From NCBI GenBank assembly GCA_013298185.1, contig JAAFJQ010000003.1:694-64693 (forward strand): a stretch of DNA of 64,000 bases. Direction: 5' to 3'. The notes beneath the pieces are model-generated. The model saw only the letters and a program-made list of their open reading frames with translations, made no database searches and had not been told where the DNA came from. Shown here piece after piece: positions 9,064 through 31,659 of this stretch (positions are counted from its first letter, which is position 1; each line of letters starts with the position of its first letter). This DNA is from Deinococcales bacterium (GTDB taxonomy: Bacteria > Deinococcota > Deinococci > Deinococcales > JAAFIG01). Position numbers and translations under genes: made by a program.

Positions 9064-10298
9064 ACCAGCCCAATCTCGAGCAAAACCAACTGCTGGCTCA
9101 TGCGGTGCGCTTTAGCCGTGAATTGCGCGAGGCGGGGCTTCGGGTCACACCCAATCAAACCGAGGTCTTTGCATTGGCGCTCAGTCGTATTCCGATGCTC
9201 GAGCCAAGGGCTTTTGCCGATGCGGCTCGGGCTTGCTTAGTCTCGAGACGCGAGGATTTAGCCAAGTTCGAGCAGGTTTTTAAGTCCTTCTGGCTCGAGT
9301 TGGGTTTGGGTGGCATCCCAGAAGAATTACTCAACCAAGCCAGCCTACCCAATCAGCAACAAAAACCTCGTCCCGCCGAAGTGCGCGATGGCTCGAGCCA
9401 AGGTGATAAACCGCCTTCTGAGCTTCCACCGCAACCGCTCACCGATCGAGCGCTGACGTACAGCCCAGACTCAACCCAAAAGCACAAGCGCTTTGACCAA
9501 ATGAACCCTGCTGAACTCGAAGCAGCCAAACAAGCCTTGCGGCGTTTTCAGTGGCGGGTCGGTCAGCGTCGCACAAGGCGTTTTGTGGCTGCCAGAAGCG
9601 GCGAGCGCTTGGACTACCGCCGTAGTTTCCGCACTGCCATGCGTTTTGGCGGTGAGTGGATTAAACTCGAGATGCGCCGCAAGAAAACCAAGCCTCGACC
9701 ATTGGTGGTGTTGGCGGATGTCTCGGGGAGCATGGAACGTTATGCGCGGTTGCTGCTGCATTTTATGCACGCCGTGACTCAGCGGTTAGAACGGCGCAAC
9801 ATCGAAACCTTTGCCTTTGGAACGCACCTGACCAGAATCACCAAATCCCTCGAGCGGCGCGATGTTGACGCATCCCTAACCGAAGTTGGCAAAACCGTGA
9901 ATGATTGGTCTGGTGGTACGCGCATCGGTTCGAGTTTGGAGTTGTTCAATCGGGTTCATGCCAAACGGGTGCTTGGGCGCGGCGCGGTGGTGATTCTGAT
10001 TTCGGATGGTTGGGATCAAGGGCAACCCGAAGTTTTGGGTGCAGCCGTCGAGCGCTTGCAAAAAACCTGTCATCGTTTGATTTGGCTCAACCCCCTGATT
10101 GGTACAATTGGTTTTCAACCGCAGACTCGAGGCTTGCTGGCGGCACTGCCTTTTGTGGATGATTTTTTGAGCATTCATAACTTAAATTCCCTCGAGCAAC
10201 TCGCCACGCATCTCGAGGGAATCAGCCATTTGCGCTCGGCTCGGCGCAGTGGTATTAAAGGTTGGGAAATTCAACCAACGCACCAAGCCCCAGAATAA
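9060..10298 (+). CDS. CoxE-like VWA domain protein
   Basis: 412 aa. N-terminal LLAHAVRFSRELREAGLRV, the MIDAS-like motif DVSGSM, GGTRIG and ILISDGWD. Confidence 0.8.
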   Translation: MNQPNLEQNQLLAHAVRFSRELREAGLRVTPNQTEVFALALSRIPMLEPRAFADAARACLVSRREDLAKFEQVFKSFWLELGLGGIPEELLNQASLPNQQQKPRPAEVRDGSSQGDKPPSELPPQPLTDRALTYSPDSTQKHKRFDQMNPAELEAAKQALRRFQWRVGQRRTRRFVAARSGERLDYRRSFRTAMRFGGEWIKLEMRRKKTKPRPLVVLADVSGSMERYARLLLHFMHAVTQRLERRNIETFAFGTHLTRITKSLERRDVDASLTEVGKTVNDWSGGTRIGSSLELFNRVHAKRVLGRGAVVILISDGWDQGQPEVLGAAVERLQKTCHRLIWLNPLIGTIGFQPQTRGLLAALPFVDDFLSIHNLNSLEQLATHLEGISHLRSARRSGIKGWEIQPTHQAPE

Positions 10299-10638
10299 TT
10301 TCATCGAGTGTTTCAGGTTCAAGAACACCAAGACGCTGAATAAAACGCTGTGTGCTGATGGTCATGGCTCGAGTTTGAGCTGTATCTGCTGCCGATTTTT
10401 TCTCAAGACCATTTTGCAGAGTTGGTTCAACTGGGACAATCCAAATTCGGTTTTCATAAGTTTTTGCCCAACCCGTCAAAGGAATAACCAAGCGCACAGG
10501 ATGAAGCAGGAGTGCATCAGAGCTAACAACCACTGCGGGGCGTTGTTTTTGAATTTCAGAGCCTCGAGCTGGATTGAAATTGACGCGCCAAATATCACCG
10601 CGTTTGACAATTGGCGGAATACCATACGTTTCAGTCAT
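10255..10638 (-). CDS. mazF: MazF/PemK-family type II toxin (mRNA interferase)
   Basis: 127 aa. Motifs KRGDIWRVNFNPARGSEIQKQRPAVVVS and LVIPLT. Overlaps the coxE-like 3' end by 44 nt on the opposite strand. Confidence 0.85.
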   Translation of the reverse strand: MTETYGIPPIVKRGDIWRVNFNPARGSEIQKQRPAVVVSSDALLLHPVRLVIPLTGWAKTYENRIWIVPVEPTLQNGLEKKSAADTAQTRAMTISTQRFIQRLGVLEPETLDEIILGLGALVEFPNL

Positions 10639-10828
10639 GAAGTCCTGTCATATCGTCACTTTGCTCTAACCATTCCATTGCTTCAGAATCTGGCGTGTAG
10701 ATAGGCTCACCAATAGCTTGTAGCTCGAGCAAATCACGTCTTTGTTGAATGGATAATCGCATAAAAGCCCGTCTATCCATCAGTGGTGGCTGATGGGCTG
10801 GATCAACGATGTGCTGTGATGAGTTCAT
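10631..10828 (-). CDS. cognate antitoxin of MazF (small acidic-tailed protein)
   Basis: 65 aa from the ATG at 10828. Overlaps the mazF start by 8 nt. The longer ORF reaching 11095 runs antisense into hisA and is rejected. Confidence 0.6.
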   Translation of the reverse strand: MNSSQHIVDPAHQPPLMDRRAFMRLSIQQRRDLLELQAIGEPIYTPDSEAMEWLEQSDDMTGLHD

Positions 10829-10882
10829 ACAAACGAGTTTAGCATTTTCTGACTTTTTAGGTCTTATGTTAGGCTTACCGCG

Positions 10883-11584
10883 ATGGTGCAGATTATTCCT
10901 TGTGTGGACATTCAACGCGGACGTGCAGTGCGTTTGTACAAAGGCGATCCGAAACTCGAGACGGTGTATTTTGATTCGCCCCTTGAAGCCGCGCAGCACT
11001 GGGCGAACCTTGGCGCGAAACTGGTGCATTTGGTGGATTTGGATGCTGCCACGGGCGCTGGCGAAAACCGCGCAATCATCCTCGAGATTGCCCAAAAGTT
11101 ACCCGTGCCAGTCGAGGTCGGCGGTGGTATTCGCAACCTCGAGACGGCTCAAGAACTGCTTTCTGGTGGAGTCAGCCGAATTATCATTGGCACAGCCGCG
11201 ATCACCAATCCAGAATTCTTAGCTGCTGCGCTGCTCGAGTTTGGCGCTGAAAAAGTTGTGGTGAGCCTCGATGCCAAAGATGGTTTGGTGGCGATCAAAG
11301 GCTGGGCGGAACAAAGCACGCAAACCGCCGTAGACGCGGCGGCTCGAGTTTGGGATGTTGGCGTGCGAACCTTGATTTACACCGATATTGCGAGGGACGG
11401 CACACTCGAAGGTTTGAATCCCGAACCTCTAAAACCCATGCGAAGCGCGTGGGCTGGTGAGCTGATTGCTGGCGGTGGCGTGCGTGATGAGCGTGATATT
11501 GCCCTGCTCGAGAATCTGAGCATTGAGGGTGTGATTGTTGGTCGTGCCATTTACGAGGGAACACTGCAATTCAGAGGCGCTTAA
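10883..11584 (+). CDS. hisA: ProFAR isomerase HisA
   Basis: 233 aa. Motifs [30 protein letters not shown] and [11 protein letters not shown]. Confidence 0.92.
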
Positions 11585-12074
11585 TCATTGCGTTCTTGTG
11601 GTATTCCTTGTAGACCTTGGGTGGTAATTCCTCGAGTGAGATTTCGCTGTAACCACAGCGCACAAAAAAAACTGGCTCGAGTGTCCAAGCAAACAAGCGT
11701 AAAATCCCGAGTTCTCGAGCTTCGGGTTCAATTCCGTACACCAGTTGCTTGCCTAAGCCCTTGCCTTGGAAATTCGGGTGAATCGCAAGCGAACGCACTT
11801 CCGCAAGGTCTGACCACAGCACATGCAGCCCGACAATACCTGCTATGCCGTTGTCCATCGTCTCGAGTAAGTAAAAATCGCGGATTTGGCTGTACAGCAC
11901 ATCTCGAGACTTGGGTAGCATCGCCCCACGCCGCGCCCAATGTGCGATCAGTTGCAGCATCGCTTCGACATCGCGCATGGCTGCTTTTCGCATATGCAGA
12001 CTCGAGTTTGGGTCGAGGTCGGGCAAGCTCATACGGGCAGTATAAAACGATTTGAATCGCCATATTTTTGACAC
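11571..12074 (-). CDS. GNAT N-acetyltransferase (ArgA-like amino-acid acetyltransferase family)
   Basis: LAIHPNFQGKGLGKQL is the acetyl-CoA-binding Q/RxxGxG motif. The start may be an internal ATG (12032 or 11993). Confidence 0.75.
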   Translation of the reverse strand: MSKIWRFKSFYTARMSLPDLDPNSSLHMRKAAMRDVEAMLQLIAHWARRGAMLPKSRDVLYSQIRDFYLLETMDNGIAGIVGLHVLWSDLAEVRSLAIHPNFQGKGLGKQLVYGIEPEARELGILRLFAWTLEPVFFVRCGYSEISLEELPPKVYKEYHKNAMIKRL

Positions 12075-12077
12075 AAT

Positions 12078-12093
12078 TTGAAAGGGCTTTCAG
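12078..12093. promoter_or_regulatory. LacI-type operator-like palindrome upstream of the permease-acyltransferase fusion
   Basis: TTGAAAGGGCTTTCAG differs at 2 of 16 positions from the perfect palindrome at 16491-16506. It ends 15 nt before the ATG at 12109. Confidence 0.55.
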
Positions 12094-12108: not shown

Positions 12109-15100
12109 ATGACTTTTCCGCCTTTCCACCGCCCTCGAGAACGCTTGGTGGGTCGAATTGTGCAGGCACACTCGAGCAGTGCGTATTGGTTTATTGCACC
12201 GTTTTTTGTGCTGTTGGTGTTGTTTGCTGTTTTTCCACTCGCCATGTCTTTGGTGGTTTCGTTCATGGAATGGAATCCCAGTTCTGGTTTGGGCGGTATG
12301 CGTTTTGATGGTCTGTGGGCATTTAATTACACTTTACAAGATGGTATTTTCTGGCAAGGCTGGTGGCGTTCGTTGCGCTTGGCACTGATAACCGCCGTCA
12401 CCCAACACCTGATTGCCATTCCACTGGCGTTTATGCTGCACATTGCTTTTAAGCGGGTTCAAGGCATGATTGCCACGGTTATTTTTGTGCCATTCATGAC
12501 CTCGAGCTTAGCGGCTGGCGCGGTGCTGGCAGCGATTTTTGGTATTTTCTGGGCGCTGCCGATGCAACTTTCTGACATCCTGCAAAGCCTGCCTTTGATT
12601 GGCTCGAGCTTGCCATCCTTATCGGTTTTTTATACCGAAAGCGGCGCGGCGTTCACGCAACTCTGGACAGTCACAGGTTGGAATGTGCTGCTGTACCTGA
12701 TGGTCTTAAACATTGTGCCACGCAGCTTGTACGAGGCGGCACAACTCGATGGTGCTGGTTTTTGGCGTTTGTTCTGGAATGTCGCCCTGCCGATGATGCG
12801 TCCAATGATTTTCGTGGCATTCACCATGAGTTTCTTGCGTGGTACACAGACTTCGGTTGGGCAATGGTTTGGACCGGTCTCCGATATTCGCAACATTGAT
12901 TTACCAACCTATATCATCCGCACCGCTTTTTGGGATACCGATTTTGGTTTAGCCAGCGCTCAAACATGGGTTTTTTTTCTTGGCATTGCGCTTTTTACCT
13001 TTGTGTTTTACTGGTTTTTTGGGCGTAACTTCACCTTGCTCGAGACGACTGCTTTAGGCGAAGCTGACAGCTCACCGTTGCGTTTTCCAGCCGCGTGGCG
13101 GGTTGCGATGAAGTTGTTGCTGCTGGCTGGTTTGGCACTTTGCCTGATTCCGATTTTCAATTTGTTATTGGCTGGCAGCCGAAGTTACAGCGATCAATGG
13201 CTGAGCATCGGTGATGCGTGGTCTGGCAATTATGCCCTCCTACTCGAGGCACAACCGACTTTTTGGCGCAACCTTTGGAATAGTGCTTATATTGCCACGC
13301 TTGCCAGCCTTGGCGCAGTGGTCGTCTCGAGCCTCGCAGGTTTTGCTTTTGCGCTGCTTGAGTTTCGTGGCAAAGCCATTTTGTACGGCGTGGTGCTGAG
13401 CGTGATGCTTTTTCCGAGCCTGATGAACCTGATTCCCACCGCCGTGAATATGGCGCTCCTTGGTTGGATTGACCAAGCTCGAGCCGTTTGGGTTCCGGGT
13501 GTGGTGAGTGCTTTTGGTGTGTTTTTACTGCGCCAATATGTTCAGGGCGCAGTGCCGAAATCCCTGCTCGAGGCAGCGAGAATAGATGGTGCAAGTGATT
13601 TGCGGATTTACTTTTCAATCATGTTGCCACTGGCTCGTCCTGCCCTTGCAACCTTGGGTTTGGTGACGTTTGTTACGGTTTGGAATAACAATTCGGTGGC
13701 GTTGGCGCTTCTGAAAAGCCCTGAGCAGCAAATGGTCAGTCAGATTCTGGCTTATATGAATGCCAGAAATGGTTTGAACGGCGCGTACCTGATAGGAACA
13801 GCCATCTCGAGCCTCGTGCCACTTTTGGCTTTCTTGGTTTTTGCACGGCAAATCAGCTTGGCACTGAACATTGCTGTACCTTCGAGCCAAAGCCCTTGGT
13901 GGTCTCGAGCTTGGGCAGCTTGGCGCAATCGAAGGCAAGTCCAAACACATGTCTCGAGCCAAACTTTGCTCGGCGCAGATGGCATTCGCGCCATTGCTTG
14001 CCTCATGGTGATTTTTCATCATCTCTGGCAACGTTTTGACTCGAGTAACGCTTCAGACACCCTTAAATTCTTTGATGCTTTTCTCGAGCAGGGTAGCGCT
14101 GGCGTGAGTGCTTTTTTTGTGCTTTCGGGAATGCTGCTTGCTACTCCTTTTTGGCGGGCGTATCTGAATCAAAAACCCATGCCGAATATGCTCGAGTACA
14201 CGCGGCGCAGAGCCGTGCGGATTGTACCGGGCTTTTATGCGAGTTTAATTGTGAGTTTTCTACTTGGACTCTTTTTTGCTGTGGACGGCGAGAAAATCTG
14301 GTGGCGTTTGGTTTCGGCACTCAGTTTCACCACGGCGTTTTCGCATGTTACTTTTTTTCCAGTTGAACTGAATGGTCCATTGTGGAGCATTGGTTTTGAA
14401 GTCTTTTGTTATATCCTGATGCCACTTGGTATGTGGGTGTTGTTTACGCAATTTCCAAAACGCGGTTTTTGGTTCGCGCTGCGCTTTTGGCTTTTCTTGC
14501 TTGGCTTGGTCTTTGTTGCCAATCACCTCATTCTCGAGAGTCTTATCCCAGACAACATCAATCGCGGTTGGGATCATGGGCTTTTGGGTGGTGCAAAATA
14601 CTGGATGCCCAACTACAACGCCATTGGTATGTTCGCTCATTATGTGCTTGGTGTGCTGGCGGCTGGTTTTATTGTGGACAGAAAAAACCGTGGGCGTGAA
14701 CCAAGTGCAGCTTTTGATTTGGTGGCACTGATTGTGTTTGTTGGCATGTTTGCACTGCTCTGGTTGTCGAGGGGGGCTGGGGATTTTGGTTTTAGTTTCC
14801 AAAGTCAACCGTACCGTTTCCCGTGGTTTCCAGCCTGTGTTGCTCTTTTACTAATTACCCTGCCATTCTCGAGGGTTTTTGGTCGTATTTTAGACAATAC
14901 TTTTTTTCGGTATACCGCTAAAATTTCCTTTGGTTTGTACATCTGGCACTACCCGATTCTCGAGTGTATTCGCTTGTTGCACAACGAAAATTTTCGTTAC
15001 GCTGGTATTCAAAACCCGCTCGAGTTCTTCTGGTTGGCTGGTTTGGGTTTGCTGCTTGCCTACATCGCTGCTGCCTGGTCGTACAAACATATCGAAGCCC

Positions 15101-15165
15101 CATTTCTTGGAAACCCATCACAGACGGAGAAATTACCGCAACAAACCTCACCTGTGGCTGGATAA
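12109..15165 (+). CDS. fusion protein: MalF-like ABC permease, MalG-like ABC permease and acyltransferase-3 (AT3) domain
   Basis: 1018 aa. Two EAA loops (YEAAQLDGAGFWRLFWNVALPMMRP and LLEAARIDGASDLRIYFSIMLPLARP). AT3 hallmarks GADGIRAIACLMVIFHH, FFVLSG, RRAVRIVPGFY and PLWSIGFEVFCY. Confidence 0.85.
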   Translation: MTFPPFHRPRERLVGRIVQAHSSSAYWFIAPFFVLLVLFAVFPLAMSLVVSFMEWNPSSGLGGMRFDGLWAFNYTLQDGIFWQGWWRSLRLALITAVTQHLIAIPLAFMLHIAFKRVQGMIATVIFVPFMTSSLAAGAVLAAIFGIFWALPMQLSDILQSLPLIGSSLPSLSVFYTESGAAFTQLWTVTGWNVLLYLMVLNIVPRSLYEAAQLDGAGFWRLFWNVALPMMRPMIFVAFTMSFLRGTQTSVGQWFGPVSDIRNIDLPTYIIRTAFWDTDFGLASAQTWVFFLGIALFTFVFYWFFGRNFTLLETTALGEADSSPLRFPAAWRVAMKLLLLAGLALCLIPIFNLLLAGSRSYSDQWLSIGDAWSGNYALLLEAQPTFWRNLWNSAYIATLASLGAVVVSSLAGFAFALLEFRGKAILYGVVLSVMLFPSLMNLIPTAVNMALLGWIDQARAVWVPGVVSAFGVFLLRQYVQGAVPKSLLEAARIDGASDLRIYFSIMLPLARPALATLGLVTFVTVWNNNSVALALLKSPEQQMVSQILAYMNARNGLNGAYLIGTAISSLVPLLAFLVFARQISLALNIAVPSSQSPWWSRAWAAWRNRRQVQTHVSSQTLLGADGIRAIACLMVIFHHLWQRFDSSNASDTLKFFDAFLEQGSAGVSAFFVLSGMLLATPFWRAYLNQKPMPNMLEYTRRRAVRIVPGFYASLIVSFLLGLFFAVDGEKIWWRLVSALSFTTAFSHVTFFPVELNGPLWSIGFEVFCYILMPLGMWVLFTQFPKRGFWFALRFWLFLLGLVFVANHLILESLIPDNINRGWDHGLLGGAKYWMPNYNAIGMFAHYVLGVLAAGFIVDRKNRGREPSAAFDLVALIVFVGMFALLWLSRGAGDFGFSFQSQPYRFPWFPACVALLLITLPFSRVFGRILDNTFFRYTAKISFGLYIWHYPILECIRLLHNENFRYAGIQNPLEFFWLAGLGLLLAYIAAAWSYKHIEAPFLGNPSQTEKLPQQTSPVAG

Positions 15166-15294: not shown

Positions 15295-15333
15295 TCATAG
15301 CTCATAGCTCGTAGCTCGCAGCTCATAAGCCCA
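15295..15333. repeat. heptanucleotide array (AGCTCAT, AGCTCGT and AGCTCGC units)
   Basis: TCATAGCTCATAGCTCGTAGCTCGCAGCTCATAAGCCC. Confidence 0.8.
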
Positions 15334-15368: not shown

Positions 15369-15397
15369 TTGACAGCGCTTTCAAAGTTTGTTACACT
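15369..15397 (+). promoter_or_regulatory. lacI-family gene promoter with an overlapping operator
   Basis: TTGACA, a 17-nt spacer, then TACACT. The -35 lies inside TTGACAGCGCTTTCAA (15369-15384), one mismatch from the palindrome at 16491. Confidence 0.55.
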
Positions 15398-15434: not shown

Positions 15435-16442
15435 GTGTCTCAGGCAAGAACATTAAATGATGTTGCAAAACATGCGAATGTCTCGCCTAGCACAGTCTCG
15501 AGGATTCTGAACGGGACAGCTTCGGTCAGCCCTGATAAGCGCAAATCGGTTGAAGAAGCCATTTCACTTTTGGGGTATCGTCCGAATCTCATGGCGCAAG
15601 CGCTTGCAAAAGGTCGTTCAATGACCATTGGAGTGGTGACTCAAGCCATCTCGAGTCCGTTTTATGGTGAAACCTTTGTGGGTATTGAGCAGGGTTTAGC
15701 CAGCAGTGGGTATCATCCGATGTTTATCTCTGGGCATTGGCGTGCCGAAGAAGAACGCGAAGCGGTGGATATTCTCACCTCCCGTCGGGCAGATGCACTG
15801 ATTATTCTTGGTGGTAATCTCGAGGATGATTATCTCTTAAAGATGGCGGAATCCTTGCCGATTGTCACGGTGGGGCGCACAGTTCAGGGTCTCGAGCATC
15901 AGAGCATCAACATCTCCCAAGAAGACGGCGCAATGCTTGGTATGCGGCACTTGCTTGATTTAGGACACCGACGCATTGCCCATATTTCTGGTCCTCCTTC
16001 GCACCGCGATGCCATCGAGCGCTTCACAGGTTATAAAAACGCTTTGGCTGAATATGGAATTGCCTATGACCCAGAGCTGGTTCTCGAGGGCAATTACCAA
16101 GAGCGAGCTGGTCTACTAGCTACTGAACAGTTGCTTTCGCGTCGTACCGATGTCACCGCGATTTTTGCTGCCAACGACCAAACCGCGATGGGTGCAAGGC
16201 TCGCCATGTTCCGCCGAGGAATTCGTGTTCCAGACGATATGAGTTTAATTGGTTTTGATGATTTGTTCGCTTCTGGTTATACCACTCCGCCGCTGACCAC
16301 GGTGCGTCAACCGGGTGAAGACATGGGCTTGGCGGCTGCCAATATGGTCTTTGCTTTGCTCGAGGGACACCGTCCTAAACCGCCTCGGTTATCGGCGAGT
16401 TTAATTGTTCGTGAATCTACTTCTCGCTTGCGTTTTGCTTAG
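15435..16442 (+). CDS. LacI-family transcriptional regulator
   Basis: 335 aa with a GTG start after a GGAGG RBS. HTH LNDVAKHANVSPSTVSRILNG followed by a periplasmic-binding-protein-like sugar-binding core. Confidence 0.92.
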   Translation: MSQARTLNDVAKHANVSPSTVSRILNGTASVSPDKRKSVEEAISLLGYRPNLMAQALAKGRSMTIGVVTQAISSPFYGETFVGIEQGLASSGYHPMFISGHWRAEEEREAVDILTSRRADALIILGGNLEDDYLLKMAESLPIVTVGRTVQGLEHQSINISQEDGAMLGMRHLLDLGHRRIAHISGPPSHRDAIERFTGYKNALAEYGIAYDPELVLEGNYQERAGLLATEQLLSRRTDVTAIFAANDQTAMGARLAMFRRGIRVPDDMSLIGFDDLFASGYTTPPLTTVRQPGEDMGLAAANMVFALLEGHRPKPPRLSASLIVRESTSRLRFA

Positions 16443-16490: not shown

Positions 16491-16506
16491 TTGAAAGCGC
16501 TTTCAA
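16491..16506. promoter_or_regulatory. perfect 16-bp LacI-type operator upstream of the sugar ABC operon
   Basis: TTGAAAGCGCTTTCAA lies 39 nt upstream of the solute-binding-protein ATG. Confidence 0.7.
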
Positions 16507-16544: not shown

Positions 16545-17804
16545 ATGAAAGCACGTACATTGATTGCATTCGGTTTAGCTGCTGCCGCGATCACCGGTTT
16601 GGTCGCCGCACAAGGCGGTATGAAAAAAATCTCGATTGCTGCATTTCCTAGCTTAGACGAAGCTGTGAAGATCGCTATGCCCGCCCTGAAAAAGAAGTTT
16701 CCAAATTACGAAATCGAATTGGTTGCTTTGCAATACGGCGACCACCACCAGGCATTGACCACTGCTTTGGCAACTGGGCAAGGCTTGCACGACATCGAAG
16801 CTGTGGAAATTGGTTTTGTTGGTAAATTCGCTGAAGGCGGCGGCTTGGAAGACTTGAACAAAGCCCCATACAATGCCAAAGCCCTGAAAGCCCAATTCGT
16901 AGATTACACCGTCGGTCAAGCCACTGCCTCCGACGGACGCTACATTGGTCTACCCGCCGACATCGGACCCGGCACCACTTTCTACCGCAAAGATATTTTG
17001 GACAACGCAGGAGTCAATGCCAGCGAACTGACCTCATGGGAAGGCTACATTGCCGCCGGTAAGAAAATCCAAGCCAAGAATCCAAAAATCTTCTTGATTA
17101 ACTCTGCTGCCAGCGCCGCAGGTTTGATCTGGCGCTCGAACATTCCAGCCGGCGAGGGTATTTTCTTTAGTAAAGACAACAAAGTCTTGGTTGGACCAGA
17201 CAGCGCCCGTTGGGTCAAAGCCTTTACGGTGGCTAAACAAATTCGTGATGCTAAACTCGATGCCAAAATCGGCGAGTGGAGCAACGAATGGTACGAAGGT
17301 TTCAAAGGCGGCACGGTTGCCACCCAATTTAGCGGCGCATGGTTACAAGGTCACTTCCAAAACTGGATGGCACCAGAAACCAAAGGCTTATGGCGCGTTC
17401 AAGACTTGCCAGATGGCGCATACGCACCTTGGGGTGGTAGCTTCTACACGATTCCAACTGCCAGCAAGAACAAGAAAGAAGCATGGGACATCATCCGCTT
17501 CTTAACCACCGACCGCGCCCAACAAATTGCTGCTTTCAAAGGCAACGGCGCATTCCCAGCCTTAAAAGCCGCTTGGTCAGATACCAGCTTTAACGAAGCC
17601 GTGCCTTTCCTTGGTGGTCAAAAAGCCCGTCTGCTCTGGAAAGCTGCTGCCCAAAAAATCAAGCCACTTGATGTCAACAAGTACGATAGCGTGGCACAAA
17701 CCATTGTCGAAACTCAACTGACCGCCGTGCTTGACGAAGGCAAAGACATCAAAGCCGCTTTGTCAGAAGCTCGAGCCGAAATCGAAAAACGCGCCCGCCG
17801 ATAA
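16545..17804 (+). CDS. ABC transporter extracellular sugar-binding protein (family 1)
   Basis: 419 aa. Signal peptide MKARTLIAFGLAAAAITGLVAAQ. Heads the permease operon. Confidence 0.88.
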   Translation: MKARTLIAFGLAAAAITGLVAAQGGMKKISIAAFPSLDEAVKIAMPALKKKFPNYEIELVALQYGDHHQALTTALATGQGLHDIEAVEIGFVGKFAEGGGLEDLNKAPYNAKALKAQFVDYTVGQATASDGRYIGLPADIGPGTTFYRKDILDNAGVNASELTSWEGYIAAGKKIQAKNPKIFLINSAASAAGLIWRSNIPAGEGIFFSKDNKVLVGPDSARWVKAFTVAKQIRDAKLDAKIGEWSNEWYEGFKGGTVATQFSGAWLQGHFQNWMAPETKGLWRVQDLPDGAYAPWGGSFYTIPTASKNKKEAWDIIRFLTTDRAQQIAAFKGNGAFPALKAAWSDTSFNEAVPFLGGQKARLLWKAAAQKIKPLDVNKYDSVAQTIVETQLTAVLDEGKDIKAALSEARAEIEKRARR

Positions 17805-17815
17805 GACTTCTTCAT

Positions 17816-17885
17816 GTGGTGGGTTTAACCACCCACCACCCTCCTCCGAACAAAAAAGGCTCGAGCAGTTTTGTCTCGAGCCTTT
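17816..17885 (+). promoter_or_regulatory. two intercistronic stem-loops between the binding-protein and permease genes
   Basis: A 9-bp stem at 17816-17839 and an 11-bp stem AAAGGCTCGAG/CTCGAGCCTTT at 17855-17885. Neither has a strong T-tract. Confidence 0.5.
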
Positions 17886-17898
17886 ACATAAGGAAAAC

Positions 17899-18870
17899 GT
17901 GAATAGCCAAACCACCATAAAACAAGAATTTCATTTTGGACGTTTTTATACCCGTTGGCAACGAATTTTAGCGCCTTATGTTTTTATTAGTCCATTTTTT
18001 ATTTTGTTTCTCGTCTTTGGTTTATTTCCAATGCTATTCTCGATTTACGTTTCCATGACCAGTTGGGATGCGATTTCTGGCTTGGGCGGCATGAAATTTG
18101 TGGGCTTAGATAATTACCGCTTTTTGTTTCTCGAGGACACGGCGTTTTGGAATTCGGTCAAACAAACTGCTTATATTGCCCTGATTTCTGGCTTACCTCA
18201 GCACCTGATTGCCATTCCTTTGGCATTTATCATCCATACGGGCATGAAAAAAATGCAAGCCTTTGTGACCGCGATTTACTTTGCGCCATTCGTAACTTCG
18301 GTGGCAGCGATTGCGGCTGTTTTCGGCACGCTGTATTCGGAACGAAGTGGCGTTTTGAATTGGCTGGTTCTCGAGGTGTTTAATAAAATCCCACTTCTGA
18401 ACAGCATCATCCCCGACGATCCAATTCGTTGGTTGGGAGATCGGCATTTGGTTCCGATTTCCATTTCAATTCTGGTGATCTGGCGTTACACAGGTTGGAA
18501 TACCGTGCTGTATTTGGCGGGTCTACAAGCCATTTCACAAGATTTATACGAAGCTGCCGAAGTGGACGGCGCATCGCGTTTTGAGCGTTTTCGCTACATC
18601 ACCTTGCCGCTTCTACGCCCAACCATGTTCACAGCTTTTACCTTCACGATTATTGGCAATATGCAGTTGTTTGCTGAGCCTTTCTTATTGGTCAACACTT
18701 CAGGTGGTGTCGCCAATTCAGGGCGAACCTCGGTGATGTACCTCTGGGACAATGCTTTCAACAATTTGCTGTTCGGTGATGCAGCTACCCAGACTTGGGT
18801 TTTGTTCGCCATCATCATTACCCTCACCATCATCAACAATCAAATCTTTGCCCGACTGAGGAATGATTAA
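17899..18870 (+). CDS. ABC sugar permease (MalF/UgpA type)
   Basis: GTG start after AAGGAAAA. EAA loop YEAAEVDGASRFERFRYITLPLLRP. The ORF-track start at 17731 overlaps the upstream gene. Confidence 0.9.
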   Translation: MNSQTTIKQEFHFGRFYTRWQRILAPYVFISPFFILFLVFGLFPMLFSIYVSMTSWDAISGLGGMKFVGLDNYRFLFLEDTAFWNSVKQTAYIALISGLPQHLIAIPLAFIIHTGMKKMQAFVTAIYFAPFVTSVAAIAAVFGTLYSERSGVLNWLVLEVFNKIPLLNSIIPDDPIRWLGDRHLVPISISILVIWRYTGWNTVLYLAGLQAISQDLYEAAEVDGASRFERFRYITLPLLRPTMFTAFTFTIIGNMQLFAEPFLLVNTSGGVANSGRTSVMYLWDNAFNNLLFGDAATQTWVLFAIIITLTIINNQIFARLRND

Positions 18871-19720
18871 GATGCAAAAACTTACCCTTGGCAATGCCTT
18901 GATTTACGGTCTGATTTTATTTGGTGGTCTGCTGATGGCATTCCCCTTGTACTTTATGCTGGTTTTTGCCACGCAAAGCCGCGAAACGATTTTTTCCTTT
19001 CCACCACCACTTGTACCGGGTAGCATTGACCAGATTGTCAGCAACTACAACGCCTTGATGAAAATGACCGACAACACCTTCTGGCGCGTCTTTTACAATA
19101 GTTTTTACCTCGCCAGCATGGCAACCATCACCACCTTATTTTTCTGCTCACTGGCAGGATTTGGTTTTGCGATGTACGACTTCAAAGGCAAGAATGCACT
19201 CTTTGCTGTGGTCGTTGCCACCCAAGCCATTCCTGCGGCGCTGAATTTGATTCCGTTTTACCTCGTCATGAACTTAATCGGCTGGATCAACCAACCTCGA
19301 GCCTTATGGTTTCCGGGCATGGCAAGTGCCTTTGGCATCTTTTTAACCCGACAATACATTCAAAGCGCGATTCCTCGAGAACTGATGGACGCAGCTCGAG
19401 TAGACGGCAGCACCGAATTTGGCATGTTTTGGCGAATTATTTTACCGCTGATTCGTCCTGCACTTGGCACATTGGGCTTAATTACTTTTATTGGCGTTTG
19501 GAACGAATTTGTACTGCAAAGCCTGATTTTTAGAAGCCCCGAAACCCGCACCCTGCAAACCCTGATTCGCGCTATTTCAGGCGGAACAACTGCCACCAAT
19601 GTTGACTACGGCGGATTGATGATGGGAACAGCGATTACGGTTTTACCACTCTTGATTATCTTTATTTTCACCTCGAGACAACTGATAACAGGTTTAACGG
19701 CTGGGTCGGTGAAGAACTAG
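18863..19720 (+). CDS. ABC sugar permease (MalG/UgpE type)
   Basis: 285 aa. EAA loop LMDAARVDGSTEFGMFWRIILPLIRP. Confidence 0.9.
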   Translation: MIKMQKLTLGNALIYGLILFGGLLMAFPLYFMLVFATQSRETIFSFPPPLVPGSIDQIVSNYNALMKMTDNTFWRVFYNSFYLASMATITTLFFCSLAGFGFAMYDFKGKNALFAVVVATQAIPAALNLIPFYLVMNLIGWINQPRALWFPGMASAFGIFLTRQYIQSAIPRELMDAARVDGSTEFGMFWRIILPLIRPALGTLGLITFIGVWNEFVLQSLIFRSPETRTLQTLIRAISGGTTATNVDYGGLMMGTAITVLPLLIIFIFTSRQLITGLTAGSVKN

Positions 19721-19736
19721 CTTTGAGCTTTGAGAC
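19721..19736. repeat. heptanucleotide units directly after the permease stop codon
   Basis: TAG-CTTTGAG-CTTTGAG-AC. Confidence 0.7.
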
Positions 19737-19829
19737 GGTTTTCTCGAGGGTTGCTTTGGTTCAGGATAGAGATAGACATTCAGCTAAAGGGTTTTCTTAT
19801 GGTTCATTGAAAGAGAGCGATGCGTTAGA

Positions 19830-19949
19830 ACTCCCCCTCGCTTCGCTCGACCCCTCAAAGAGGGGTGCTAAGTTCAAGAGCAAAGGCAGGGTTTTTGGTT
19901 TTTAAGTCCCCCTCTTTGAGGGGGAACGCGAGGAACGAGCGTGGGGAGT
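19830..19949. repeat. inverted pair of a roughly 40-nt dispersed element
   Basis: 19830-19869 is the exact reverse complement of 62721-62760. A diverged inverted copy lies at 19907-19949. Each copy contains a CCCCTC-N3-GAGGGG mini-hairpin. Confidence 0.85.
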
Positions 19950-20082
19950 CCGTAAGAGCTTGCGTCTTTTCTCGAAAACCCTAAAGCACTCACTCGAGAC
20001 CAACCAACAACGCACCTCGAGCCACCGTTTTTGATCTTTCCTTCGACCTTCGACCTTCGCCTTTCGCCCTGCTGGAGTCCCC

Positions 20083-23000
20083 ATGAAGCGCTTCCTCTTT
20101 CCTCTCCTCACCCTTAGCGCTTTTGCCTCAGCGCAAGAAAACAGTTTGCAGCTCGGGCAGCCTCGAGCCATGATTCAGCCCGAGGCAGTGTCTGGTTTTA
20201 ACTTGGGCAACATGATGAACATTGTCGAGAACCAAAAAGCCTTGCAAGCCCTGAATCCAAAAATTGTGCGTTTTCCTGCTGGCAATGTCGGCGATGACCA
20301 AGACCTGAACGCCTCGAGCATGAGGATATTTGGGATTAACTTGCGCCTTCTCGAGCAAAAAGGGGTTCGCCCCAAAGTAATTATTCAAACGAGGGCTTTT
20401 CAGGGCGCTCGAGGAAATGGGAAAAACCGCGCTGAGGATGCGGCTGAGGCGGCTCGGCTAGCGATTCAGAATAAGATCAAAGTGGCTTATTGGAGCGTAG
20501 GCAACGAGCCAAATTTGTATGCCGTGACTCGAGGCGATAAGAGTTGGACGGTTGAGAAATACTGCGATACCTTTAAGGCACACCGAACTGCGATTTTAGG
20601 CGTGCAACCCGATGCGAAGTTCGCGGGTCCAAGTACCACTGGTGATGCGGCGTTTCTCGAGGGTTTTGTGCGCTTGTGCGGCGATCAGATTGATGTGTTG
20701 ACTTGGCATGTGTACCCCACAGACGGACGAGCCACCAACGAAGCCGCGATTGCCACCATCGAGAGGGTTGATAATGAACGCGAGCAGTACATGAACCTCT
20801 GGAAAGACCCTGAGAAAAACCCGCTTGCGTATCAAAAACAAATTGGGTTTGGTTTGACCGAGTACGGTTTGTCGTACCGCACCGAAAGCAATCGTCATAT
20901 TGCCGATCAATTGGCGGGTTTGTGGGCAGCCGAAACCACTTTGCGGATGGCGAGTGCTGGTGCGACCCTGAACACGTATTTTGCTTTGCAGGGCATTGGT
21001 GGGCATGGCACACTGGATATTTCAGGTGTGCCTCGAGCCACGTATTATGCTTTTCGGCATTTGCAGAACTTTGCTGGGCAGGCGTTTCAGGTTAGCTCGA
21101 GCAACCAAAAAGTCTGGCTTCATGCGGCGCAAAAAGACAATTTGCTGACGGTGATGGCGATCAACCCCTTTGATGAGCCTCAGAATCTCGAGACAACACT
21201 GGCTGGTTGGCAACTCATTGGTGTGAAGGGCTTTACCAATGCTGTGGTGCAAGCCGAAAAACCCGATTTGGCGCTCAAGCTCGAGGCACAAATTGCACTG
21301 CCAGCCCAGAGTTTTTGGCGCTTGGTGTATCGCCGCCCGACCACTGCCCAAAAACCCAATGTGCCACTGGCATTGGCATGGCGCGAGGGCAATTACCGCG
21401 CTCCTCCTGCGCCAGAATTCAAAACGGCTCGCTATGCCCCGCCTTACCCGACCAATGTTTGGTGGGGTTCGCTCTTGTGGGAAAAATTCTCGAGCGCATT
21501 GATGGCACAACCCCTTGCCCTGCAAGCCACGGCATCTGGGATGGCACTCAATTACCCTAAGCTCGAGGTCGGCACAGAAGGCTTCGCCACGCCGTTTTCG
21601 CCTGATGTCACGGTTGGACTCGAGGGGGTGGTTTTCCCCGATGCTCGAGTGGATGCTGCTTCAGAATTTTTGGTACGGGCTGAATTTAAACAAGGTAGTA
21701 ACACCCTCCACAGCACTTTTGGGCGCGGTTTACCGTTTGCTTGGTTTAAGAGCAGTGGCAAAACCTTTAAGCTCTCATTTCTCGAGACTCCACAAACTTG
21801 GGCGTTGCCGTGTCAAGGCATTCCCTGCGAGGCTCGAGGTTTACGTTTCGGTGGGCGGGATTATGTTTTATTCAGCTCGAGCCAAAGCAGTTGGCGTGGG
21901 AATGAACGAGAATGGACTATTTCTGGTGAGGATTTAAGCGTTGCAGCATTGCCAGAAGAAGCCCAACAAAATCCAGATTTACGTTTATCTGCCACGGCGT
22001 TTCTTGCAGCGCACCAAGTCATGCCAACCAATTCAAAAGTGACGATGCAATACCTCCCTGCCTCGAGCCAAGTTCAAACAACGCATCAACTCGAGACAGG
22101 CAGCCTCATGGGTTTATACCCGCATCAATGGAAAAATACCCAGACGAAACTCGAGCCTTGGAGCTATATTTCAGCTCGAGGGCAAATTCGTTTAGCAGCA
22201 AGCAATTCTTTTGAAACGATCACCAATTACACGGGCATTCTGCCTAATTTGCCGCTCAGTGCAGACCAAGCGGCTCGAGATTCACTTCGTACAGCGTTGC
22301 TCGAGTTTGTGGCTCTGAAACGCTTCTTTCCGCTCTCGCCCGAGAGCATTCGGATTACCGATTCCTACACCGATGCTCGGAATTTTGGGCGCTTGAGCCA
22401 AATGCTCGAGGTGGCTGACCAATTGGGTGAAAAAGAAGCTGCTCAGACGATTCTGAATGCCCTCAGAGAACGGTTGGATGAATGGTTTGACCCTGCACCA
22501 CCTCATGCGCTTTTGTGGGACGGGCGTTGGGGAACTCTGATTCCTGTGCCAGCTTCGCACGGGGCAGATTATCAATTGAATGACCATCACTTTAATTTTG
22601 GGTACTTTTTGCAAGCAGCTGCCAGTGTCGCCGAACGCGACCCAACTTGGCTCGAGAAAAACCGAGCTTTGCTGGATGTATTAGCTCGAGAAATTGCTGC
22701 GCCTGACAATGACCCTGCTTTTACGCAGCACCGAAATTTTGATGCCTATGCAGGTCATTCATGGGCAAGCGGCGACACCCGAGGGCAAATGCGTGGCGCA
22801 AACCAAGAAAGCTCGAGTGAAGCCGTGAATGCTTGGGCGGGTCTGATTCGCTATGCCCAAGTCAGTCAAAACACTGCCCTGCTCGAGCATGGCATTGGCA
22901 TGTATGCCCTCGAGACCAACGCGGTTTGGCAGTATTGGTTTTCGGCTGGTGGGAATTTCCCGAGCGGTTATCCAAAAACCACGCTTGGTATCTTGTGGGG

Positions 23001-23475
23001 CAACGGCGGTGAGTACAACACATGGTGGACGAATTCTCGAGGGGCGATTCATTTGATTCAAGCCCTGCCGCTGACTGGCTCGAGTTTGTATTTGGCACGG
23101 GAAACCGATTTTGTGCAGAAGAACTTTGCGATGATTGGCGACCAGCGTTACTTCAATGATTTATCAGCGATGTACTTGGCACTCTCTAACCCAGATCAGG
23201 GGTTTTCGCTCTGGAATCAAGAATTGCGTCCTGAATTTGGGAATTCACTGACCCAAACCAAAAACTGGTTCTCGAGTTTGCAGTTTTACGGTTCACCTAT
23301 GCAGAGCATCAGCGCCAATGTGCCGCAATTCGCGGTTTTTCAAAAAAACAAAACCAGAACCTATGTCGCTTATAACCCAAGCCAAAGCACTCAAATCGCC
23401 ACCTTCTCCGATGGTACGACCCTTTCCATGCCAGCCCATCGCTATGCCCAAATCCAACTCGAGGTTCAACCATGA
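20083..23475 (+). CDS. secreted two-domain glycoside hydrolase: clan GH-A TIM-barrel domain plus GH81 endo-beta-1,3-glucanase domain
   Basis: Signal peptide MKRFLFPLLTLSAFASAQE. The N-terminal half has VRFPAGN, GNEPN and TEYG (acid/base and nucleophile Glu). The C-terminal half has the GH81 signatures NDHHFNFGYF, GHSWASG and NQESSSE. Confidence 0.8.
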   Translation: MKRFLFPLLTLSAFASAQENSLQLGQPRAMIQPEAVSGFNLGNMMNIVENQKALQALNPKIVRFPAGNVGDDQDLNASSMRIFGINLRLLEQKGVRPKVIIQTRAFQGARGNGKNRAEDAAEAARLAIQNKIKVAYWSVGNEPNLYAVTRGDKSWTVEKYCDTFKAHRTAILGVQPDAKFAGPSTTGDAAFLEGFVRLCGDQIDVLTWHVYPTDGRATNEAAIATIERVDNEREQYMNLWKDPEKNPLAYQKQIGFGLTEYGLSYRTESNRHIADQLAGLWAAETTLRMASAGATLNTYFALQGIGGHGTLDISGVPRATYYAFRHLQNFAGQAFQVSSSNQKVWLHAAQKDNLLTVMAINPFDEPQNLETTLAGWQLIGVKGFTNAVVQAEKPDLALKLEAQIALPAQSFWRLVYRRPTTAQKPNVPLALAWREGNYRAPPAPEFKTARYAPPYPTNVWWGSLLWEKFSSALMAQPLALQATASGMALNYPKLEVGTEGFATPFSPDVTVGLEGVVFPDARVDAASEFLVRAEFKQGSNTLHSTFGRGLPFAWFKSSGKTFKLSFLETPQTWALPCQGIPCEARGLRFGGRDYVLFSSSQSSWRGNEREWTISGEDLSVAALPEEAQQNPDLRLSATAFLAAHQVMPTNSKVTMQYLPASSQVQTTHQLETGSLMGLYPHQWKNTQTKLEPWSYISARGQIRLAASNSFETITNYTGILPNLPLSADQAARDSLRTALLEFVALKRFFPLSPESIRITDSYTDARNFGRLSQMLEVADQLGEKEAAQTILNALRERLDEWFDPAPPHALLWDGRWGTLIPVPASHGADYQLNDHHFNFGYFLQAAASVAERDPTWLEKNRALLDVLAREIAAPDNDPAFTQHRNFDAYAGHSWASGDTRGQMRGANQESSSEAVNAWAGLIRYAQVSQNTALLEHGIGMYALETNAVWQYWFSAGGNFPSGYPKTTLGILWGNGGEYNTWWTNSRGAIHLIQALPLTGSSLYLARETDFVQKNFAMIGDQRYFNDLSAMYLALSNPDQGFSLWNQELRPEFGNSLTQTKNWFSSLQFYGSPMQSISANVPQFAVFQKNKTRTYVAYNPSQSTQIATFSDGTTLSMPAHRYAQIQLEVQP

Positions 23476-24851
23476 CACAAGTAAAAGAAAAACCTGCCCT
23501 CCTCCGCCAAGCCTTCCCCAAGAATTTTGTTTGGGGAACAGCCACCGCTTCTTATCAAATCGAAGGCGCAGCCAACCTCGAGGGGCGCAGTCCGAGCATC
23601 TGGGACGTGTTTGCTAAAATGCCTGGTAAAGTCAAAAATGGAGACACGGGCGATGTGGCTTGTGACCATTATCATCGTTACGAATCGGATTTTGATTTGA
23701 TGCAGAGCCTTGGTTTCAATGCGTATCGCTTTTCGATGTCGTGGTCGCGGGTGCTGCCCAATGGTCGTGGGCAAGTCAACCAAAAAGGCGTGGCATTTTA
23801 TGACCGTATTGTGGATGCACTGCTGGCTCGAGGGATTGAACCGTATGTGACGCTGTACCACTGGGATTTACCACAAGTTCTCGAGGAGACTGGCGGCTGG
23901 CTCAACCGTGATACGGCTGATGCTTTTGTCGAGTATACCGACCTCATGACCAATGCCCTTGGCGACCGCCTGAAGAACTGGGCAACGCTGAATGAACCTT
24001 GGTGTTCGGCATTTTTGGGGCATGGTGTTGGGATTCATGCCCCGGGCAAAACCGATTTTGCAGCTTCGCTGCAAGCTGCTCATCATTTGCTGCTGGCGCA
24101 CGGACAAGCCATGCCAATCATTCGCCAAAATGTGCCTGATGCCAGTGCTGGGATTGTGCTGAATCCAGCGCCAGTTTATCCAGCTTCGGACTCGAGCGAG
24201 GATTTGGCTGCGGCGCATCGCGCCGATGGCTTCCAGAACCGTTGGTACTTCGACCCTGTGTTTGGCAAGGGTTACCCAGAAGATCTATGGCAAGCTTATG
24301 GAAAACATGCACCCAAAATCCAAGACGGGGACCTCGAGAAAATCGCTGCACCACTGGATTACATCGGCATCAATTACTACAGCCGCACTGTGGTCAAAGC
24401 TGCACCGATCCAAGACACTCCTTTTCCTTGGGCATTGTTGGGTTATGAGCATATGCAACTCGAAAATGTGCCACGCACTTTTTTTGACTGGGAGGTCTAC
24501 CCACAAGGGCTGACCGATTTCTTGGTGCGTCTACAAAACGAGTACCAACCCAAAAGTATCTTGATTACTGAAAACGGCGCGACCTACCAAGACCAACTGC
24601 ATAACAGTCAAATCAATGACCTCGAGCGGACTGCATATTTTGAGCAGCACCTCAGTGCCAGCCTCAAAGCCATTGGGCAGGGCGCGAAGTTGCACGGTTA
24701 TTTTGCATGGAGTTTTTTAGATAATTTTGAATGGGCAGAAGGGTATGAAAAACGCTTTGGCATGACCTACGTGGACTTTCAGACCCAAAAGCGAATCGTG
24801 AAGCACTCAGGGCGCTGGTTTCAGGCATTTTTGGGGGAGAAATCCTTATGA
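23472..24851 (+). CDS. GH1 beta-glucosidase
   Basis: 459 aa. Motifs FVWGTATASYQIEGA, TLNEPW and ITENGA. ATGA overlap with the upstream gene. Confidence 0.93.
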   Translation: MTQVKEKPALLRQAFPKNFVWGTATASYQIEGAANLEGRSPSIWDVFAKMPGKVKNGDTGDVACDHYHRYESDFDLMQSLGFNAYRFSMSWSRVLPNGRGQVNQKGVAFYDRIVDALLARGIEPYVTLYHWDLPQVLEETGGWLNRDTADAFVEYTDLMTNALGDRLKNWATLNEPWCSAFLGHGVGIHAPGKTDFAASLQAAHHLLLAHGQAMPIIRQNVPDASAGIVLNPAPVYPASDSSEDLAAAHRADGFQNRWYFDPVFGKGYPEDLWQAYGKHAPKIQDGDLEKIAAPLDYIGINYYSRTVVKAAPIQDTPFPWALLGYEHMQLENVPRTFFDWEVYPQGLTDFLVRLQNEYQPKSILITENGATYQDQLHNSQINDLERTAYFEQHLSASLKAIGQGAKLHGYFAWSFLDNFEWAEGYEKRFGMTYVDFQTQKRIVKHSGRWFQAFLGEKSL

Positions 24852-31566: not shown

Positions 31567-31659
31567 GCAAAGATTTTACTGCTCAAAGCCAAAAAATTCT
31601 ATTGGGTGATTTTATCCCGTCCTCTTGTTCCCATGACAATCTCGAGCTATGCTTATTAC

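Follow-up and report, generated by a model that had tools for sequence, protein, structure and literature searches.

A single-chain protein of Deinococcales joining two CUT1-type ABC sugar-permease domains to an AT3 acyltransferase, with a possible role in transport-coupled O-acylation

The DNA analysed here, a 64,000-nucleotide (nt) stretch from a Deinococcales bacterium (GenBank assembly GCA_013298185.1, contig JAAFJQ010000003.1, positions 694 to 64,693 of the forward strand) and referred to below as the window, carries on its + strand an open reading frame (ORF) at 12109-15165, with an ATG start, 1018 codons free of internal stops and a stop codon at 15163-15165, in which two membrane domains of an ATP-binding cassette (ABC) sugar importer are joined to an acyltransferase-3 (AT3) domain. 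The same three-part composition had been proposed from the sequence alone (the original prediction), and each third of the protein scores separately in Pfam: residues 1-320 and 321-600, scanned alone, match BPD_transp_1 (E 9e-11, 42.3 bits and E 7e-13, 49.2 bits; cutoff 26.4), and residues 601-1018 match Acyl_transf_3 (E 8e-35, 120.8 bits vs cutoff 31) over profile positions 3-325 of 326. When the whole protein was scanned, BPD_transp_1 matched two stretches with 72.3 bits, and Acyl_transf_3 covered residues 622-988 (E 1e-33, 117 bits vs cutoff 31). In NCBIfam, residues 21-303 are UgpA/MalF-like and residues 336-580 UgpE/MalG/GlcU-like, with the equivalog cutoffs of UgpAE, MalFG and GlcTU all missed widely (best score 90.8 bits vs 297, for UgpE); the protein is therefore a member of the CUT1 sugar-permease family and not an orthologue of any named system.

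Domain 1 (residues ~20-305, 12166-13023, + strand) is a MalF/UgpA-type (F) membrane domain of a type-I ABC importer, and domain 2 (residues ~336-585, 13114-13863, + strand) is a MalG/UgpE-type (G) membrane domain with Foldseek matches to MalG and SugB, each with six transmembrane (TM) helices in the structural model described below. EAA loops are the sites at which the ABC ATPase docks on the membrane domains of such importers. The coupling-loop pattern EAA-X3-G-X9-I-X-LP is present in both halves, as shown by a motif check, i.e., in loop 1 (YEAAQLDGAGFWRLFWNVALPMMRP, residues 208-232, 12730-12804, + strand) and in loop 2 (LLEAARIDGASDLRIYFSIMLPLARP, residues 486-511, 13564-13641, + strand). 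Thus the chain holds a complete heterodimeric CUT1-type importer membrane module with the F and G halves head to tail. All peptide motifs quoted in the original prediction were found at the positions given there. The separate permease genes at 17899-19720 had been called clear paralogues of the two domains; the paralogy is real but only moderate, domain 1 being 35% identical (E 5e-50) to the separate F permease (ORF 17731/17899-18870) and domain 2 being 43% identical (E 4e-63) to the separate G permease (18863-19720). A variable linker, residues 586-621 (13864-13971, + strand), connects domain 2 to the AT3 part; it is positively charged (four K/R, no D/E), predicted to be cytoplasmic and modelled with low confidence.

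An AlphaFold2 (AF2) model of the whole chain, built on 44 homologues, has a mean predicted local distance difference test (pLDDT) of 81, a predicted TM-score (pTM) of 0.76 and 6+6+10 membrane-length helices, and confidence is low only at the termini, in the two linkers and in some short loops. For a chain of three domains, such a pTM suggests, as far as a model can, that the domains are arranged in a defined way relative to each other. Foldseek searches of the PDB returned the single-chain FbpB of Thermus thermophilus on top (571 aligned columns), with MalG, SugA/B and the importers of alginate and spermidine next; the probability is 1.00 for the FbpB, MalG and SugA/B matches. The predicted topology and permease fold thus bear out the earlier domain reading, and its remark that importer membrane domains are normally separate subunits needs to be softened, since FbpB is a precedent for a fused double permease. 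The gene product is a genuine membrane protein in one chain, with about 22 TM helices.

The AT3 domain (13972-15108, + strand) has ten membrane-length helices within residues 623-1000 in the AF2 model, and the chain ends 18 residues after TM10; this prediction agrees with the pattern of the AT3 family, ten TM helices with both termini on the cytoplasmic side. The R/K-X10-H motif (R14 and the essential H25 in OafA), the FFxISG-type motif and the RxxR motif have been defined for AT3 proteins, and the corresponding residues are essential in OafA and Oac (PMC7448272). In the fusion protein the first of these lies in GADGIRAIACLMVIFHH (residues 622-638) with the exact spacing R627-X10-H638, the second is FFVLSG (residues 669-674), and the third is contained in RRAVRIVPGFY (residues 700-710; RxxR = R701-A-V-R704); a further AT3 motif is PLWSIGFEVFCY (residues 757-768). 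There is no SGNH match to the fusion protein in Pfam and no 11th TM helix, and the GG-F/Y-xGV-D motif is absent from the long loop between TM1 and TM2, so that the domain belongs to the stand-alone type, for which direct binding of the acceptor is assumed (PMC9558356). The N-terminus of the AT3 part is predicted to be cytoplasmic because twelve helices precede it, an even number in each half, and because the linker is rich in K/R and without acidic residues; this is the orientation needed by AT3 domains (PMC9833829), which use cytoplasmic acyl-CoA as donor and an acceptor outside the cytoplasm (PMC9558356; PMC9833829). Between TM5 and TM6 of the AT3 part lies a subfamily-specific loop, PDNINRGWDHGLLGGAKYWMPNYN (14548-14619, + strand), a candidate acceptor site that is predicted from the helix order of the AF2 model to be periplasmic; its residues R819, W821, G827, G828, A829, K830, W832, Y836 and N837 are invariant, and the motif is common to stand-alone orthologues. 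No solved structure was matched by the AT3 part at the sequence level, and HGSNAT, a solved relative of AT3 proteins, was a weak structural match (8vli_B, E 0.08).

A word-indexed search of 5.8 billion proteins gave 63 representatives that share this architecture (38-100% identity; a few are incomplete), drawn from NCBI, JGI, ENA and Logan assemblies. In a scan of one genome per species the full-length fusion gene was found only in Deinococcales: in many metagenome-assembled genomes (MAGs), including Meiothermus MAGs, in the complete chromosome of Deinococcus yunweiensis KCTC 3955 and in the isolate draft of D. rufus; the D. sonorensis copy was found separately (record CP158296.1), and several genomes carry two paralogues. 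The protein of the window is 81-86% identical to copies in Deinococcales MAGs. In the 44-homologue alignment E209, A210 and G215 of loop 1, E488, D493, G494 and A495 of loop 2, R627, the VLSG of FFVLSG, R700 and R701 are invariant, and H638 and R704 are at least 90% conserved. Mean pairwise identity is 48, 50 and 57% for the three domains vs 20% for the second linker, and the ratio of nonsynonymous to synonymous substitution rates (dN/dS) against four close orthologues is 0.05-0.14 in each domain (rough values, as dS is saturated); these sequence comparisons show each domain to be under purifying selection.

It could be argued that the long ORF arose by mis-assembly or a sequencing error joining three genes, or that the gene is in decay and carries a dead domain, and a few MAG copies are indeed split (L011, inside domain 2) or fragmentary (L069, L080), while the divergent paralogue L034 has lost the catalytic His and RxxR. 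Such an origin is nevertheless extremely improbable: the architecture is uninterrupted across about 60 cluster representatives from four assembly sources and intact in the D. yunweiensis complete chromosome, D. sonorensis CP158296 and the D. rufus draft, dN/dS is low in all three domains, and the catalytic and coupling motifs are invariant. The earlier description of one uninterrupted gene is borne out by the homologue survey, in which the junctions are open in dozens of independent assemblies. Some members depart from the usual form. L034 (9947-13075), which at 38% identity diverges most among the full-length paralogues, has VLFSSL for FHHL, RRRFTQ in place of RxxR and a degenerate FFVLSG, with no sugar locus nearby and FabH-like and cytochrome P450 neighbours, and may be an AT3-dead or re-purposed member. 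The D. sonorensis protein (L001, 10001-13435; 1144 aa) has a C-terminal extension of ~130 residues after AT3 that is absent from the other aligned copies. One member of clade B, a clade described below, has a Thr/Ser/Lys-rich insertion of ~40 residues between TM4 and TM5 of AT3 (L023, 9938-13162), and several clade-B proteins are 1058-1093 aa long vs the usual ~1010.

Downstream of the fusion gene the window carries, all on the + strand, a LacI-family repressor gene (15435-16442; Pfam LacI and Peripla_BP_3/1), a CUT1 solute-binding protein (SBP) gene (16545-17804; SBP_bac_1, N-terminal signal-like sequence), the separate F-type permease gene (17899-18870; GTG start with AAGGA upstream) and its G-type partner (18863-19720), and genes for a secreted endo-beta-1,3-glucanase of glycoside hydrolase family 81 (GH81)-like type with a signal peptide (20083-23475), a cytoplasmic GH1 enzyme (23472-24851) and a cytoplasmic GH43 beta-xylosidase-like enzyme (24848-26470). 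The term beta-glucan locus used earlier is too narrow, as a beta-xylosidase-like GH43 gene is also present and the sister clades lie in loci of xylan and mannan type. In the GH81-like protein (1130 aa) the GH81 catalytic match covers only residues 756-1018, and the ~700 N-terminal residues are weakly GH39-like; the protein may be a multi-domain secreted glucanase. Between the SBP and F permease genes there is a perfect hairpin at 17858-17882 (GGCTCGAG-CAGTTTTGT-CTCGAGCC), whose stems are two copies of CTCGAG and which may be an intra-operon attenuator or mRNA stabiliser. On the other side of the fusion gene, the divergent GNAT gene at 11571-12074 was considered as a partner and rejected because the upstream gene differs in orthologous loci. 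The earlier statement that neither an SBP nor an ATPase gene is adjacent holds for the ATPase, as the signature LSGGQ/E is absent from every frame of the 64-kb window, and only narrowly for the SBP: the nearest such gene (16545-17804) is 1.4 kb downstream of the fusion gene with only lacI between, and belongs to the neighbouring operon with permeases of its own. The CUT1 systems of the phylum Deinococcota commonly share an ATPase encoded elsewhere.

The LacI-type operator-like site noticed earlier upstream of the fusion gene, the palindrome TTGAAAGGGCTTTCAG (12078-12093, + strand; 15 nt before the ATG), matches the operators of lacI and of the SBP operon: it has two mismatches to the perfect palindrome TTGAAAGCGCTTTCAA (16491-16506, + strand) before the SBP gene, and TTGACAGCGCTTTCAA (15369-15384, + strand), which overlaps the -35 region of the promoter-like site of lacI, has one. 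Just three sites in the window match the palindrome TTGAAAGCGCTTTCAA, and each lies in a 5' region of the fusion/lacI/SBP locus. At up to three mismatches 0.87 matches are expected by chance, and three were reached in 5 of 100 shuffles, so that the weight of this evidence comes from the position of all three matches in 5' regions of one locus. The operator is also kept upstream of the orthologues in L007, L008, L009 (~33 nt before the fusion gene), L018 and L019. Ahead of the orphan copies in D. yunweiensis and D. rufus it lies close to the gene and has a single mismatch, which indicates that membership of the regulon outlives the loss of linkage. The proposed co-regulation with the neighbouring locus is thereby strengthened, even for copies detached from a sugar locus, and the sequence evidence places the fusion gene in the regulon of the neighbouring LacI repressor, i.e., in glycan-oligosaccharide utilisation. 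A scan for sigma-70 promoters found none for the fusion gene and only that of lacI, overlapping the lacI operator; between the two genes, upstream of that promoter and operator, lie four tandem heptamers TAGCTC[A/G] (15298-15325), with one variant CAGCTCA.

Seventeen distinct loci with usable flanks were compared, including the window and one locus cut at the contig end, and 13 of them adjoin a cluster of LacI, SBP, two permeases and GH1; the exceptions are L001, L018, L019 and L034. The adjoining clusters are of beta-1,3-glucan/xylan type or of mannan type, and the fusion genes fall into three clades. In clade A (at least 71% identity; the window and L007-L010) the fusion gene stands upstream of lacI in L007-L009, with SBP, F, G, GH81 and GH1 genes following in L008 and L009, or downstream of GH81, GH1 and GH43 genes (L004/L010). 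Downstream of the fusion gene in L004, at a distance of ~5.5-10 kb (18558-23063), genes for Cas5d, a Cas_CT1975-family protein (Cas7/Cse4), Cse1 and a CRISPR_assoc-family protein (Cas6e/Cse3) lie beside TniQ, which suggests a CRISPR-associated Tn7-like transposon. In clade C (52-57% identity; L005, L013, L021, L027 and probably L012 and L040) the order is lacI, SBP, F, G, GH10 or GH81-like, GH1 in some loci, GH43 and fusion, the last starting 17-275 nt after the cytoplasmic beta-xylosidase (GH43) gene on the same strand. In clade B (41-46% identity; L003/26, L006/31, L023, L025, L032 and the partial loci L020, L022, L036 and L043) one strand carries GH1, G, F, SBP and lacI, plus a GH5 in L023 and L032, and in most loci a GH2 beta-mannosidase gene followed by the fusion gene lies on the opposite strand; in L003/L026 the fusion gene directly follows lacI instead. 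A gene for a carbohydrate esterase family 7 (CE7) acetyl-xylan-esterase (AXE1, E 7e-117) is inserted between GH2 and fusion in L022, L023, L025 and L043, its stop overlapping the start of the fusion gene. Signal peptides are absent from GH1, GH2, GH43 and CE7 and present in GH81, GH5 and one GH10. The operator of the window was not found before the fusion gene in clades B and C, where this gene is probably co-transcribed with the closely preceding GH2, CE7 or GH43 gene; the clade-B LacI is only ~30% identical and must use a different site. The permease halves of the fusion proteins are one family across the clades (~40-45% identity), with 34-48% identity to the canonical permeases of the A/C type vs 25-34% to those neighbouring the clade-B genes.

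A full HMMER search of 1.84 billion representatives, with the AT3 part as query, gave 129 matches at E <= 1e-30, mostly stand-alone proteins of ~400 aa. Members of the same AT3 subfamily are joined to CUT1 permeases in at least four arrangements: F-G-AT3; F-AT3 (~740 aa) followed by a separate G gene (P0064-72; L087, L088); F-AT3-G in a single 1008-aa chain (P0119, L089); and a separate F followed by AT3-G (P0109, L090/L091). The fusions form three sequence lineages whose AT3 parts are 32-42% identical to each other, the permease parts of the different fusion lineages are no closer mutually than to canonical permeases, and the EAA loops are kept; these comparisons can be read as at least two or three independent fusion events. 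Of all the available evidence, these independent fusions in permuted orders argue most strongly for a physical partnership between this AT3 subfamily and a type-I permease pair. In L090 a gene (10066-11652) that overlaps the AT3-G gene by a few bases encodes a 528-aa protein of the AGE/GlcNAc-2-epimerase fold with a lipoprotein-like signal (LLISC), probably extracytoplasmic, which might be a binding or processing partner in that lineage.

On these grounds we give about an even chance to acyl-CoA-dependent O-acylation coupled to transport by the fusion protein. A shared ATPase of the MsiK/MalK type, encoded elsewhere, would dock on both EAA loops; cytoplasmic acyl-CoA (probably acetyl-CoA) would be threaded by the AT3 domain to a site that faces the periplasm; and this site would O-acylate the beta-linked oligosaccharide or glycoside translocated by the attached permease pair, modification and translocation being physically coupled one-to-one. 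The modified sugar would then be imported, its capture being left to a borrowed binding protein of the locus or to the loops of AT3, and in one sub-lineage the CE7 acetyl-esterase could strip the acyl tag inside the cell. Within transport-coupled acylation, import is favoured as roughly twice as likely as export, because the operon partners are cytoplasmic exo-glycosidases and because a cytoplasmic acetyl-esterase gene lies immediately upstream in one sub-lineage. The physical coupling of acylation to oligosaccharide transport, already suggested in the original prediction, is something that we infer and that the recurrence of CUT1 fusions in four domain orders reinforces. A bolder version, which we hold only tentatively, would make the protein a new class of ABC transporter working by group translocation, in which AT3, possibly replacing the SBP, captures and acylates the sugar and hands it to the permeases, and esterases de-acylate it inside.

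The stand-alone orthologues point in part in another direction. Proteins of Meiothermus hypogaeus, Trueperaceae, Demequina and Actinotalea (45-51% identity) share the invariant periplasmic motifs PDxxxRGWxxGxxGGAKxWMPxYN and QPYxFPxFP with the fusion protein, and none of those inspected (Meiothermus hypogaeus, Trueperaceae, Demequina and an Actinomycetales MAG) lies beside ABC permease genes, the neighbours being housekeeping or unassigned genes. The only recurring neighbour is an acetyl-CoA synthetase gene, divergent from the stand-alone AT3 gene in Demequina oxidasica (L046, 7459-9456) and D. aurantiaca (L052, 7556-9610); it may be a weak hint at acetyl-CoA as donor, or mere synteny of the genus. 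In other proteins the same AT3 subfamily is fused to Wzy_C (O-antigen-ligase-like; P0219), to VanZ and PHP (P0197/P0228) and to DUF2141 (P0107). An AT3 domain that acylates an envelope or periplasmic glycan, for instance shielding the cell's own polymers from the induced GH81, GH5 and GH10 enzymes, with the permease pair as a sensing, gating or anchoring module and not as carrier of the acceptor, would account for the occurrence of the periplasmic motifs outside sugar loci, for the fusions to the envelope-type domains Wzy_C, VanZ and DUF2141, and for the co-regulation of secreted endo-glycanases with signal peptides, and the characterised targets of AT3 enzymes are mostly surface glycans (PMC9558356). 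We regard this as unlikely: a mere anchor would hardly account for four independent domain orders with both transporter halves, strict EAA loops and strong purifying selection, the loci lack linked genes of envelope biosynthesis, and cell envelopes of very different kinds would need to share the acceptor.

Several points weigh against transport-coupled acylation as outlined above. There is no SBP or ATPase gene in the fusion's own transcription unit in any of the four architectures, so that classical import through a binding protein is no more than a possibility. One family of fusion permeases faces strongly differing neighbouring SBPs and permeases, so that simple sharing of the local SBP is not self-evident. 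Acylating and then de-acylating a nutrient costs energy with no obvious benefit, the unrelated neighbourhoods of the stand-alone orthologues mean that the acceptor need not be a transported nutrient, and the AT3-to-permease interface is only suggested, by the global pTM. The lack of a cis-encoded binding protein in particular keeps alive both the envelope acylase and a LacA-like role in detoxification and efflux, in which the SBP-less permease pair exports non-metabolisable or excess glycosides and AT3 caps them outside, blocking their re-uptake by the canonical importer. Efflux of this kind would agree with the fact that the fusion always accompanies and never replaces a complete canonical importer and with the acceptor site of AT3 expected on the outer face, and sugar operons with an acetyltransferase of presumed detoxifying role are familiar from LacA of the lac operon and from Maa. 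It is nonetheless an improbable account, as import is the usual function of type-I BPD_transp_1 modules, the enzymes that share the operon are catabolic and cytoplasmic, and the adjacent cytoplasmic CE7 in clade B fits better if acylated sugars arrive inside.

If transport-coupled acylation holds, an enzyme-coupled importer, or an importer-fold exporter, joins the repertoire of ABC systems, and the loci suggest that Deinococcales chemically tag fragments of beta-glucan, xylan and mannan during uptake. Group translocation, if true, would be the first transport-coupled sugar acylation and would give an experimental handle on acceptor recognition by stand-alone AT3 enzymes. How SGNH-less AT3 enzymes find and modify their acceptors, and on which side of the membrane, are open questions (PMC9558356); the fusion fixes the partner and the stoichiometry and names a likely acceptor class, the oligosaccharides of the co-regulated locus, so that these questions become directly testable. 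Genetics is feasible because three cultured Deinococcus species carry the fusion gene.

Two further features of the window are recorded here. The ORF at 31357-33186 encodes a 609-aa protein that matches both halves of the copper type II ascorbate-dependent monooxygenases (PHM/DBH-like), unusual in bacteria. The hexamer CTCGAG occurs 404 times in the 64 kb (6.3/kb) vs ~16 copies predicted by base composition and ~10 by Markov-1 simulations, with no flanking-base preference and a median spacing of 112 bp, and 25 of the 64 palindromic hexamers, including GAGCTC, CTGCAG, GTCGAC, GGATCC and TTCGAA, are wholly absent. The excess is also found in Deinococcales MAGs (4-6/kb), in Meiothermus including cultured M. 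hypogaeus (1.6-3.1/kb) and in Trueperaceae (2.2/kb), and is not seen in the genus Deinococcus (<0.2/kb). The fusion ORF contains 19 of these sites in all three codon phases, 9-13 of which are at identical aligned positions in orthologues despite dS>1. The closest analogy found is the cyanobacterial HIP1 (PMC5861425), and literature searches found no paper on this CTCGAG excess, which is unrelated to the fusion and may merit a study of its own.

When the fusion is compared with known systems, both modules belong to known families and their combination is undescribed. AT3 reviews, structural papers and full-text literature searches gave no mention of an AT3-ABC permease fusion, and only SGNH, alanine-racemase and eukaryotic NRF fusions appear in those papers, in agreement with the original prediction that no transporter-AT3 fusion has been characterised; annotation pipelines (JGI, NCBI) already label such proteins, the NCBI name being "acyltransferase family protein". 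Like the CUT1 importers MalFGK2, UgpAEC and LpqY-SugABC, the fusion has F and G BPD_transp_1 domains with canonical EAA loops and lies in a LacI-regulated sugar locus, and its predicted fold matches that of MalG and SugA/B (TM-score to target 0.7-0.8); unlike them, it has both halves on one chain, is extended by an enzyme and lacks an SBP or ATPase gene of its own. The best structural match, FbpB of T. thermophilus FbpBC (PDB 9j4r; 571 columns, TM-score to target 0.72), is a precedent in the same phylum for both membrane halves in one polypeptide, but it belongs to an iron importer, is 18% identical to the fusion and has no acyltransferase domain.

The AT3 part resembles the stand-alone enzymes (Oac/OacB, WbaK, Lag1, NolL, OpgC/Cgm, CmmA and TmaT) in its ten TM helices, its R/K-X10-H, FFxxSG and RxxR motifs, its long divergent TM1-TM2 loop and the lack of an SGNH partner. 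Some of these enzymes acylate oligosaccharides or periplasmic glucans, but they are not fused to an ABC importer or known to cooperate with one, and the subfamily of the fusion has its own invariant periplasmic motifs with no characterised member among close relatives. In AT3-SGNH proteins (OafA, OafB, OatA) and AT3-alanine racemase (VanT), AT3 is likewise a module of a multidomain protein, the partner being a soluble C-terminal domain after an 11th helix, whereas in the fusion it is an N-terminal transporter of 12 helices. LacA and Maa offer an analogy only, as acetyl-CoA-dependent sugar acetyltransferases encoded and regulated together with sugar transport and catabolism; they are soluble cytoplasmic proteins of the left-handed beta-helix type, an unrelated fold, and are not fused to a transporter. 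HGSNAT of the TmAT superfamily, with acetyl-CoA on one side of the membrane and the sugar acceptor on the other (PMC12423673), is a mechanistic analogy and not a transporter fusion. Although it works by phosphorylation and with unrelated proteins, group translocation by the phosphotransferase system (PTS) provides a precedent for chemical modification coupled to sugar uptake.

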